Source: Pseudomonas phage HHBS51_1. From it: a DNA stretch of 64,000 bases. The DNA is taken from the sequence record PQ287641.1; one strand, given 5' to 3'. A model generated the notes under the pieces. That model did not search any database, was not told where the DNA came from, and saw nothing but the letters and a program-made list of their open reading frames with translations. Positions 4,387 through 6,203 of this stretch are shown one piece after another. The position numbers were made by a program, and so were the translations under genes. Each line of letters begins with the position of its first letter. Position 1 is the stretch's first letter.

Positions 4387-4700
4387 GGAAGCAAAATCAG
4401 CGCCGATGTCTCGGCGTTCTGCCGTAAGCCTGACGGCACGGTGGTACAGCTTGGACTGGAGGAGGATGGGCGCGTATGGGAGGCCGTCGTGGAACGGGAT
4501 GATCCCGAGGCGATTGGTTCTGGCAGTGCACATGCAATTACTGCCGTGGACTGCGGCTGTTCTGTGTGCGATGCTGTACGCATGGCTATCAAGCGAGACT
4601 CTCGTTCGGGCGGTCGCATCTGGGTAACACTGTGTAGGGCGGGTAAAATTCTAACTGGCGGCTTGAATCTGCTGCAACCATCCGCCAGACCTCCCACTAC
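4387..4700 (+). CDS. Cys-containing hypothetical protein; 3' end uncertain
   Basis: Frame of ORF 4339..5100. Real-looking part is VGSKISADVSAFCRKPDGTVVQLGLEEDGRVWEAVVERDDPEAIGSGSAHAITAVDCGCSVCDAVRMAIKRD. Beyond ~4700 the frame runs into GC-rich repeats and is probably non-coding. Confidence 0.3.
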
Positions 4701-5227
4701 CGTGAAGGCTCGCGCGCCCCCATGCCCCCGTGCGCGCGTTTCTTCGCGTGCCTGTGCGGGATATTGCTCGCGTGCGTTGTGTGCGCGCGTACTAGCCTCA
4801 AGCGGGTGTGCACCCGCGTCGAGAGGTTCATGTCAACGGCGCGTGAGAGAGGTTCTAGCGCGGTTCAATCTAGCGCTGCCTAGTACACCAGAGCGCGGGC
4901 GGGCTTGGCTCTTTTCGACGGGCAGGGTGCGCGGGCCGCCTTGCCTCTTTGCTCCTGGTGGACTCCTGGTCACTACCTGCGGCGTCGTACTCCTACCTGG
5001 GTACTGCCCTGCTGGGTTCCGCCTCAGGCGGCGGCCTCCTGTCCCGGCCGGCATTCGAGCGCTCAGTCTGGCTCTGCCGCCTGGGCTCCTCTCATGCTAG
5101 TGCGACAATTCTCTCAGGTATAAGTAGGGCAGGGGTTATATAACGGATTGGCACTGACGGGGCTTCGATAGGCCCGTAGAGTTCGCCACATGGTTAGGCC
5201 ATAAGCAACACGGACTCAACCAGTGGG

Positions 5228-5275
5228 TTGACACACTAGGCTGGCAAGGCTAGAGTGACAACCAAGCAAGGCAAG
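5228..5275 (+). promoter_or_regulatory. sigma70-like promoter module P1: TTGACA-N17-TAGAGT followed by conserved GACAACCAAGCAA leader
   Basis: Exact -35 consensus at 5228-5233, 17-nt spacer, -10 TAGAGT at 5251-5256. The element repeats at 5813-5862. Confidence 0.45.
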
Positions 5276-5616
5276 TAAGTGGCCCAAGCCTCAGGGGGCT
5301 TGGTCAGGTGGGTAACGGTGGTACACACCCGCCGCTGGTAGTCGACCAAGGCACGGCGAAGGCTAGCTGAAGTTGACAAGCCAAGCGGATGCTGCAGAGA
5401 TCGCGAGGCGTCAGGATCAACAAGGCCGAGAGGCGGGAAACCCGACTAGAGTGACCGCCAGGCTCGAACAAGGCGGCAGTTGTCCGGCTAGAACACGGAC
5501 CCAGAGATGAGCCTACAGGTAGGGACTGGCGAGATGTCGCGCTACCACTTGACACTGATTCACCGCTCTTTAACAAGTCGAGTCTGCTGTAGTGTATCCA
5601 CAGAGGAGGCACTACC

Positions 5617-5766
5617 ATGTACGAAGTAACCGTGCACAGCGAAACCGTCAAGCCGGGACACGCCATTCAGTTCCACCAGCACACGGAGTTCTTCGATACG
5701 CATGAGGATGCGAAGCGCTATGCTCAAGGCCAGATTGTACGCCTGAAGTACGGGCGGTGTGCGTAG
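5617..5766 (+). CDS. small protein (49 aa) with strong RBS
   Basis: AGAGGAGG then 7 nt then ATG. Translation MYEVTVHSETVKPGHAIQFHQHTEFFDTHEDAKRYAQGQIVRLKYGRCA. Not in the ORF track (under 60 aa). Confidence 0.45.
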   Translation: MYEVTVHSETVKPGHAIQFHQHTEFFDTHEDAKRYAQGQIVRLKYGRCA

Positions 5767-5812
5767 AGTATCCGGTGCAAGCGCTTGAAATAGGCGCTAC
5801 ACTACAGCAGAC

Positions 5813-5862
5813 TTGACAAGCTAGGCCGAAAGGTCTAGGGTGACAACCAAGCAACACGCAAA
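5813..5862 (+). promoter_or_regulatory. sigma70-like promoter module P3: TTGACA-N17-TAGGGT followed by GACAACCAAGCAA
   Basis: Same architecture as P1. A weaker third copy (TTGACA-N17-AGAGAT) lies at 5373-5401. Confidence 0.45.
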
Positions 5863-6203
5863 CTGTGACGCGCAGTCAGGTGCCGGGCACCTGCCAACGT
5901 GGGGATACAAGCGCCAACGGCTACGGCTGAAAGCGCGGGACTACGCACCGCCTAGGAATAACCTGAGTCGATGGCGCACACCGATGCAGCGCCCGACCGA
6001 TGGGAGTAGTCCATCCGCACCGCCGGGATTAGTGGCCAATGCCATGAAGCCGGACAGCGATAGAACGGCCTGAGTACCCTTAGGTTATGGGCAAATCGTG
6101 AACACGGCAGGCCGACCCTGCACTGAGTCACGACAGTACGGGAGTAATGCTCTCCCGCTGACGATGGCCTAGCAGGGCCGAAACTGAACATGAGGATACG
6201 GGT

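Follow-up and report, generated by a model that had tools for sequence, protein, structure and literature searches.

Positions 4692-6203 of a 64,000-nucleotide stretch of Pseudomonas phage HHBS51_1 (sequence record PQ287641.1; the whole stretch is called the window here) very probably correspond to the left-end control region of an LKA1-type (Stubburvirus) podovirus of the T7 supergroup. Judged from its sequence, this region comprises a terminal repeat, promoters, a small gene and a structured leader that ends in a hammerhead ribozyme motif. It lies in a 9.9-kb podovirus segment and stands out of its natural context in this record, most likely through chimeric assembly. The folded leader ending in a hammerhead motif is new relative to the known left-end anatomy. 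An earlier reading of the sequence alone (the sequence-only reading) had described about 1.2 kb of this DNA as a repeat-rich, low-coding early regulatory region with three promoter modules, possibly producing short leader RNAs or associated with an origin or with packaging. A BLAST search with window positions 4300-6300 returned three phages only, HHBS14_1, LKA1 and phiPLS27. HHBS14_1 matched 100% of the query with 96% identity, the LKA1 match extended over nt 1-1563 of its genome and the phiPLS27 match consisted of its 1430-bp end fragments. As in the T7 supergroup (Autographiviridae), the region is placed at a physical left end beside a direct terminal repeat. The LKA1 record (AM265639) contains a repeat region at nt 1-298, a 50-aa open reading frame (ORF) designated ORF1, ORF2 at 1571 and four "putative P. 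aeruginosa specific promoters" at 475-520, 513-558, 685-730 and 1170-1215, and the phiPLS27 record (AH001319) describes a terminal repeat of 318 bp and several short direct repeats.

Window position 4692 aligned to nt 1 of LKA1, of phiPLS27 and of the metagenome contig L008, and also to the boundary of the right-end repeat of phiPLS27. On the basis of this homology, the DNA from 4692 to about 4930 was recognized as the direct terminal repeat, the predicted site of concatemer cutting and packaging. The earlier notion of a packaging-associated region fits this part, in agreement with the terminal-repeat annotations of LKA1 and phiPLS27. One repeat copy is collapsed because the source is a circular or concatemeric assembly. 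The repeats of LKA1 (298 bp) and phiPLS27 (318 bp) both end within indel-rich repeat DNA. The short repeats reported before were each found twice (GTGCGCGCG at 4730/4781, CTAGCGC at 4855/4870 and CTCCTGGT at 4952/4963), together with longer degenerate repeats of 24 nt (4727/4751) and 22 nt (4893/4929). The description of this DNA as very GC-rich was overstated, since the GC content was 65% in 4692-5000 compared with 60% in the podovirus segment and 57% in the window. In several relatives (L007 2058-2300, L009 2222-2452, L011 1918-2160), one of the final two called genes ahead of the terminal repeat matched the Acb2/Tad1 hairpin family (anti-CBASS/anti-Thoeris sponge). This slot is occupied in HHBS14_1 and the window by a gene annotated as HslV-family peptidase, with a frameshift in the window copy (4215-4627).

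Relatives were gathered through the first early protein (6204-6506), because an IMG/VR search with a 20-mer from the leader matched only LKA1 itself. This yielded 67 homologues in metagenome assemblies, and 18 loci were fetched. In loci with a recovered upstream flank, terminase and lysis genes were followed by a few small genes, then by a gap containing no more than one tiny ORF and then by the early genes. The gene-poor gap, 1.0-1.7 kb long, was kept in the metagenomic relatives. No conserved ORF was found over 4692-5227 in this comparison, in line with the low coding content proposed before.

Positions 5150-5850 carry rightward putative sigma70-type promoters, and homology and comparison showed that their consensus is common to the whole clade. 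A promoter scan of 13 genomes revealed 49 sigma70-type sites, 3-5 per genome, at homologous positions and all pointing toward the early genes. In nine of the 13 genomes a promoter was located 382-406 nt upstream of the first early gene, which is the position of P3. The consensus of the 49 promoters is TTGACA-AGC, a 16-17-nt spacer, TA(G/A)(A/G)(A/G)T and then G(G/C)(G/C)AACCAAGCAA, or in short form TTGACAAGC-N-TAGART-GnnAACCAAGCAA. The idea of an early promoter array for host RNA polymerase is supported for 5150-5850 by these genomes together with the LKA1 annotations, and homology suggests that the promoters are active. The array as such is nothing new for this phage group; it is already known for LKA1 and T7-like phages. 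A literature search did not find a transcriptome of LKA1-like phages.

The number of modules had to be corrected. Three were claimed, but the full 42-nt module TTGACA-N17-TAGRGT-GACAACCAAGCAA occurs exactly twice, as P1 and P3, which agree in 81% of their 42 nt, and shuffled sequences are expected to contain none. The supposed third module at 5373 (P2) has only TTGACAAGC in common with them, its -10 is CAGAGAT and the GACAACCAAGCAA leader is lacking. P1 and P3 had been called near-perfect, which holds for the exact -35 and the 17-nt spacer of both but not for the -10 of P3. This hexamer, TAGGGT, matches only 3 of 6 positions of the E. coli consensus, and for this reason a generic promoter scan listed only P1. 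What was taken for a leader downstream of the modules appears, from the consensus of the 49 promoters, to be the local form of a clade-wide motif just 3' of the -10. All four plus-strand TTGACA hexamers of the 9.9-kb segment fall within 5228-5813 (590 bp), and a separate CTAGAGTGAC fragment without -35 is present at 5446. In the HHBS14_1 lineage the spacer and -10 of P3 are P1-like, so that P1 and P3 look like copies here. HHBS14_1 has two further good promoters, P0 (TTGACG-17-TAGAGT) and P2 (TTGACA-16-TAGAAT), both of which are damaged in the window. The weakness of P2 may be an artefact, because the indels look like those of an unpolished long-read consensus. A hairpin (CCAAGCC/GGCUUGG) was observed downstream of P1 at 5283-5306. 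It is not an obvious terminator, as it has no U-tract, and its LKA1 counterpart seems to pair with a different sequence.

The 355 nt from P3 to the ATG at 6204 showed a conservation equal to or above that of the following gene. A hand-built structure of 69 pairs in 15 helices, including two H-type pseudoknots, was tested on a sequence-only MAFFT alignment of 17 sequences. The pair cells were paired in 95.3% of cases compared with 77.9% in shuffles, and double-sided changes occurred in 49 of the 69 pairs compared with 25.0 ± 2.5 in shuffles, with none of 500 shuffles reaching the observed value. Pairing fell to 29-40% when the partners were slid by 1-3 columns. G-U pairs outnumbered A-C pairs 40 to 12, which favours an RNA of the plus strand. 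The leader loops GCCGGGC, CCMAUG and GAGUAC were invariant. An RNAalifold consensus mis-paired the hammerhead stems, missed the pseudoknots and was replaced by the hand-built structure; helices H2 and H0, where the alignment was inconsistent with the structure, were omitted. By nhmmer, the full-length leader element was found only in LKA1-like contigs. Rfam searches over 4400-6600, 5840-6215 and 11 related loci gave no family for the leader at 5849-6133, only noise (RAGATH-26 at 14 bits, SNORA57 at 19 bits). The earlier guess of leader RNAs gained support by inference, in that P3 is followed by a conserved structured RNA that the hammerhead would cut free. Two related leaders (L017 and L022) kept the 5' part, namely H1 and the following ~100-150 nt, and are devoid of the 3' domain and the hammerhead, so the leader halves seem to be separable.

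Comparison demonstrated a complete hammerhead motif, predicted to be self-cleaving, with which the leader ends 65 nt ahead of the first conserved early gene. All elements of a type III core were found (C3-U4-G5-A6-N7-G8-A9 ... G12-A13-A14, the A15.1-U16.1 pair and H17), and the core was invariant in the relatives. Eleven of 13 relatives retained the core, the three stems and H17, at a constant spacing of ~45 nt upstream of the start codon. Stems I and II are closed and stem III is open. Double changes affected 6 of 6 pairs in stem I and 3 of 4 in stem II, and stem III occurred as CAGU/ACUG, CGGU/ACCG, CUGU/ACAG and CGAU/AUCG. The Rfam model Hammerhead_3 (RF00008) scored two relatives (L009 at 31.2 bits, L015 at 29.9 bits) with an alignment exactly as in the hand parse. 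A covariance model of 11 clade members (R1) gave 79.1 bits for the window, detected a single copy each in the window and the complete HHBS14_1 genome, and recovered the held-out relative L019 at 44.6 bits. This clade model produced 55 matches in 44 viral loci, several of them with 2-3 copies within 1 kb, and the core-plus-stem-II pattern was detected in more than 120 contigs from metagenomes and in 45 from IMG/VR. Published examples of hammerheads that shortly precede early or anti-restriction genes of phages (PMC3088659) make this a hammerhead of an already known kind. A literature search returned no paper linking hammerheads to LKA1.

Further arrangements of this hammerhead were seen among the contigs. 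Two to three copies of the subtype occurred on IMG/VR contigs, either a few hundred nt apart (L028 2-873, L068 1744-3021, L039 3161-3480) or ~5 kb apart (L026 2810-7919). Some termite-gut metagenome contigs carried two copies on opposite strands, 100-300 nt apart. At 3397-3460 of the distant relative L019 a type II hammerhead scored 43.8 bits, above the Rfam threshold, ~470 nt upstream of the type III motif. With the type II upstream and the type III downstream, two ribozymes bracket the L019 leader and could release an RNA with ligatable ends.

The 49-aa ORF with a GGAGG ribosome-binding site (RBS) noted before was confirmed as to the ORF and the GGAGG at 5605, but it is a truncated copy, the protein having 57 aa in HHBS14_1 and L011. 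The ORF at 5617 looks like a real gene because the small proteins of HHBS14_1 and L011 differ in ~5 residues whereas window and L011 DNA are 84% identical. It is enclosed by an inverted repeat with 95% complementary arms (19 pairs in a 20-bp stem). LKA1 and L009 have a different ORF between the arms, which carry four compensatory changes, and in L023 the arms form a simple hairpin, as no ORF lies between them. The surroundings of gp02 in the unrelated phage K4 (Paundecimvirus; L189 620-930) share the inner stem, the RBS context and the 3' flank, the stem being 24 bp long there, and K4 gp03 resembles LKA1 ORF1. The comparison suggests that small early-gene cassettes may be exchanged between unrelated P. 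aeruginosa phages. As RNA, the repeat would form a nearly perfect duplex of about two turns between cistrons, maintained by compensatory changes, as in stems of the RNase III type. The 20-bp stem is therefore a candidate long double-stranded processing stem of this type, and it also appears to serve as a linker for swapping small early genes, similar to PeSL cassettes. Stem, RBS context and 3' flank (window 5561-5619 and 5786-5817) were common to the Paundecimvirus phages K4, PA11, O4, TC6 and IME180, with different ORFs inside.

Table 1. Features of the left-end control region and of the podovirus segment that contains it (window positions)
Feature	Position	Strand	Remarks
Podovirus segment, LKA1-like (Stubburvirus)	2308-12225	+	holin gene, concatemer junction, DNA primase gene; Pbunavirus backbone around it
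39-bp Pbunavirus duplication, left copy	2269-2307		right copy 12226-12265 with one extra A; from self-BLAST and junction reading
Direct terminal repeat (predicted), collapsed to one copy	4692-4930		left boundary firm, right approximate; alignment to LKA1, phiPLS27 and L008 ends
P0 (putative promoter), CTGACG-17-TAGAGT	5154-5182	+	TTGACG in relatives including HHBS14_1 and LKA1; equals LKA1 promoter 513-558; missed earlier
P1 (putative promoter), TTGACA-17-TAGAGT plus leader GACAACCAAGCAA	5228-5269	+	in HHBS14_1, L007, L011, L022, L023, L009 and L015; deleted in LKA1
P2 (putative promoter), -35 TTGACAAGC conserved	5373-5401	+	-10 CAGAGAT here, with 2-nt insertion 5400-5401; TAGAAT/TAAGAT in relatives; equals LKA1 promoter 685-730
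Fourth TTGACA, poor -10 AACAAG, then conserved CTCTTTAACAAG block	5549-5577	+	TTGACA not conserved in LKA1; missed earlier
Inverted repeat, left arm, 20 bp	5577-5596	+	encloses small gene; missed earlier
Small early gene (putative), 49 aa	5617-5766	+	RBS GGAGG at 5605; C-terminus truncated by 1-nt deletion at 5740
Inverted repeat, right arm	5798-5817	+	overlaps -35 of P3
P3 (putative promoter), TTGACA-17-TAGGGT plus leader GACAACCAAGCAA	5813-5854	+	predicted transcription start site near 5849; equals LKA1 promoter 1170-1215
Conserved non-coding structured leader RNA, ~285 nt	5849-6133	+	17-sequence alignment, covariation; missed earlier, as was its hammerhead
Leader helices	H1 5877-5883/5887-5893; hairpin 5919-5928; H4 5954-5964; H5 5999-6015; H6-H8 6016-6059; H9/H10 6096-6133	+	
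Leader pseudoknot 1	5968-5970/5982-5984 with 5973-5976/5990-5993	+	
Leader pseudoknot 2	6069-6071/6082-6084 with 6077-6079/6089-6091	+	
Type III hammerhead motif	6134-6186	+	last 53 nt of leader; predicted cleavage 6138/6139
Hammerhead stem III	6134-6137/6183-6186		CAGU/ACUG; A17 at 6138
Hammerhead stem I	6139-6144/6152-6157		CGGGAG/CUCCCG
Hammerhead core	6158-6164; 6180-6182		CUGACGA and GAA; extra U 6165; pair A6183-U6137
Hammerhead stem II	6166-6169/6176-6179		GGCC/GGCC
First conserved early gene, 101 aa	6204-6509	+	anchor for collecting relatives; 67 homologues

Three other interpretations of this region were weighed against these data. The automated HHBS14_1 annotation treats 4700-5200 and 5840-6073 as protein-coding (CDS0011, 0012 and 0015), on the strength of Pharokka ORF calls in PQ287643, and the window has ORFs at 4339-5100 and 5840-6073. 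All of these ORFs start with TTG or GTG and yield low-complexity translations rich in Arg, Ala, Ser and Pro, which are typical of GC-rich non-coding DNA. The lengths of the indels that separate the relatives are not divisible by three, stop codons interrupt all six frames of LKA1 across 5800-6215, and gene callers find nothing there in L007, L009 and L023. Because of the LKA1 stops, the non-triplet indels, the start codons and the low-complexity translations, a coding function was rejected as almost certainly wrong. A role of 5849-6203 at the DNA level, such as that of a replication origin or a protein-binding site, would agree with its conservation above that of the neighbouring genes, and the primary origin of T7 is likewise located near the genome end, just downstream of promoters. 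The substitutions, however, are overwhelmingly compensatory within helices, including the two pseudoknots, the excess of G-U over A-C pairs (40 versus 12) is strand-specific and the 3' part is a complete hammerhead core, meaningful only as RNA, which makes a DNA element very unlikely. The TTGACA modules might finally be chance matches, or promoters of the phage's own RNA polymerase rather than of the host enzyme, given that they were recognized by sequence and that the -10 of P3 is weak by the E. coli consensus. This appears highly improbable, as -35, spacing, -10 and downstream motif are kept at homologous positions in 13 genomes, and the phage-specific promoter of the LKA1 record is a different, single-block motif at 2757-2786. 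Promoters of single-subunit RNA polymerases are not known to have the bipartite -35/-10 form.

The surroundings of the control region were analyzed as well. HHBS14_1 1841-11758 matched window 2309-12225 with 98.4% identity. Pbunavirus PE1 matched window 1-2307 and 12226-25000 at 99.6-99.8%, and PB1-like myoviruses (Pbunavirus) were 97-99.8% identical to window 1-2307 and 12226-64000. The podovirus segment starts within the holin gene and stops within the DNA primase gene, both of which are truncated, and is positioned between two Pbunavirus genes, neither of which is interrupted. Only 9.9 kb of this genome type, up to the primase gene, is contained in the window; the RNA polymerase gene of HHBS14_1 is located at 21522-23957. 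Self-BLAST gave only the 39-bp duplication and one other short repeat, which ruled out a wrapped or duplicated genome. A 38-bp direct repeat, 89% identical, was noticed in the Pbunavirus backbone (2212-2249/56951-56988), one copy of which adjoins the insertion site. No tRNA or tmRNA was found in 2300-12300. The window and HHBS14_1 differed in 169 alignment columns, 87 of them indels. Nearly all differences, indels as well as many substitutions, fell within 2309-5800, whereas 5800-12225 was almost identical (99.7% identity over 6.4 kb of the segment). The indels were scattered insertions and deletions of 1-5 nt, mostly 1-2 nt, and frameshifted the endolysin gene, other lysis genes and the small ORF in the window. 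The left 3.5 kb of the segment looks like an unpolished long-read consensus.

The accessible text of the HHBS51_1 publication gives a "10 kb insertion" as a feature of this phage and does not identify its origin; the 9.9-kb podovirus segment is probably this insertion. According to the supplement, HHBS51_1 (PQ287641) has 76,435 bp and 145 genes, HHBS14_1 (PQ287643) has 39,388 bp, and both come from the same sampling and were sequenced by Oxford Nanopore (ONT)/Illumina. The insert could be real if a Pbunavirus gained 9.9 kb of Stubburvirus DNA by illegitimate recombination in a co-infection, in which case the promoter array would drive borrowed early genes within a myovirus genome. Several observations are in agreement with this: the insert is intergenic and breaks no gene, a 39-bp target duplication on both flanks is unlike a simple contig join, both backbone breakpoints nearly coincide, the assembly used long reads and the insertion is treated as a feature of HHBS51_1 in the publication. 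On the other hand, over 6.4 kb the donor shares 99.7% identity with HHBS14_1, which comes from the same laboratory, sampling and ONT/Illumina workflow. The left 3.5 kb contains scattered insertions and deletions of 1-2 nt that frameshift lysis genes, typical of a low-coverage unpolished long-read consensus, and the genome would reach 76.4 kb compared with ~64-66.8 kb for the other Pbunavirus records compared. The insert also includes the podovirus packaging site and truncated holin and primase genes, and in the databases searched its left junction was absent from IMG/VR and its right junction from GTDB genomes. A real recombinant is thus unlikely, and it is retained as an alternative because of the clean intergenic position and the 39-bp flanking duplication. 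The near-identical donor from the same laboratory, the error-like indels in half of the insert, the oversized genome and the included packaging site make a chimeric ONT/Illumina assembly the likelier, and we consider probable, origin of the podovirus segment within the Pbunavirus.

Several points weigh against the interpretation of 4692-6203 as a control region with a self-cleaving leader. An extra U between A9 and G10.1 is present in all members of the clade compared except L019 and L020; natural hammerheads with an extra base after A9 are known (CChMVd). The two relatives detected with RF00008, at 31.2 and 29.9 bits, did not reach the Rfam gathering score of 48.5, and the hammerhead of the window was not reported by Rfam even at E<=10. 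The single-sequence folding energy of the leader was unexceptional (z = -1.1 and -0.5 on the two strands), so that the proposed structure rests on covariation and not on energy. P0 and P2 are degraded in the window copy, possibly by sequencing error, and the right boundary of the terminal repeat is only approximate (~4930). Promoter use, cutting by RNase III and ribozyme activity were all inferred from sequence.

The proposed mechanism combines the general biology of T7 with the anatomy described above, of which homology and comparison established terminal repeat, promoter array and structured leader with hammerhead motif. The left genome end would enter the cell first. Host RNA polymerase would start at P0-P3 within minutes and transcribe the early genes, and this transcription, as in T7, probably helps to internalise the DNA. 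RNase III would cut read-through transcripts at the 20-bp stem, and the hammerhead would cleave itself at 6138/6139, so that the structured RNA would be set free with a terminal 2',3'-cyclic phosphate, and stems I and II would close the 5'-OH end of the remaining early mRNA as a protective hairpin. The stem and the hammerhead would together cut the transcripts into defined units, and hammerhead cleavage would insulate early-gene expression from the choice of promoter. The predicted 5'-OH end closed by stems I and II is like that produced by engineered ribozyme insulators. A possible, though on balance doubtful, extension is that the ~285-nt leader represents a new class of phage structured RNA, made from P3 within minutes of infection and freed by the hammerhead, which could work in trans on a host protein or defence system, for instance as its decoy or regulator, or serve as a cis-acting sensor that gates cleavage and thereby early-gene expression.

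The promoter array confirms textbook T7-type biology in one more phage, and the value of further work lies in the leader with its hammerhead and in the probable mis-assembly. The hammerhead motif occurs in two cultured and tractable P. aeruginosa phages, LKA1 and HHBS14_1, at a fixed place downstream of an early promoter and ahead of the first early gene, and it is joined there to a large conserved RNA; these phages offer a system for genetic tests of what bacterial and phage hammerheads are for. If the "10 kb insertion" of this therapeutic-candidate Pbunavirus is a piece of another phage from the same laboratory, as seems probable, this bears on the curation of the record and on any safety assessment based on that genome.

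Compared with known systems, the control region is closest to the left ends of LKA1 and phiPLS27, with which it shares homologous DNA (78-85% identity) and the order of terminal repeat, host-type promoters, small ORF, long leader and early genes. Three of the four promoters annotated in LKA1 coincide with P0, P2 and P3, and the one at 475-520 was not mapped to a window promoter. LKA1 differs in that P1 is absent and the small ORF is a different gene, and P3 of the window lineage has been converted to a P1-like sequence. Neither the structured leader nor the hammerhead is annotated in the records of LKA1 and phiPLS27. In the early region of T7 (A1/A2/A3 promoters), short repeats likewise border a terminal repeat, strong promoters for the host polymerase are clustered in the first kilobase and directed toward the early genes, and double-stranded RNA stems suited to RNase III are found between cistrons. 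In contrast to T7, with which there is no sequence similarity, one processing step in the window would use a self-cleaving ribozyme, and the ~285-nt conserved folded RNA has no counterpart there.

The intergenic phage hammerheads of Perreault et al. (2011; PMC3088659) resemble the motif described here in having a type III core a few tens of nt upstream of an early gene, as in the haloviruses HF1 and HF2, and the ardA cluster of A. tumefaciens (PMC3088659) shows tandem hammerheads in phage-like DNA. Unlike those, the hammerheads of the present clade mostly have the extra U after A9 and score below the Rfam gathering threshold, and the predicted ribozyme of the window is fused to a large clade-specific structured domain, helix H9 abutting stem III. 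The PeSL cassettes of T4-type phages (PMC2839356, PMC4122927) similarly consist of an early promoter and a stem-loop that flank small variable early ORFs, and the stem and flanks of the window likewise recur around other ORFs in K4 and other unrelated P. aeruginosa phages. Unlike in these cassettes, the arms in the window form a single long-range stem around the ORF, with the promoter overlapping the right one.

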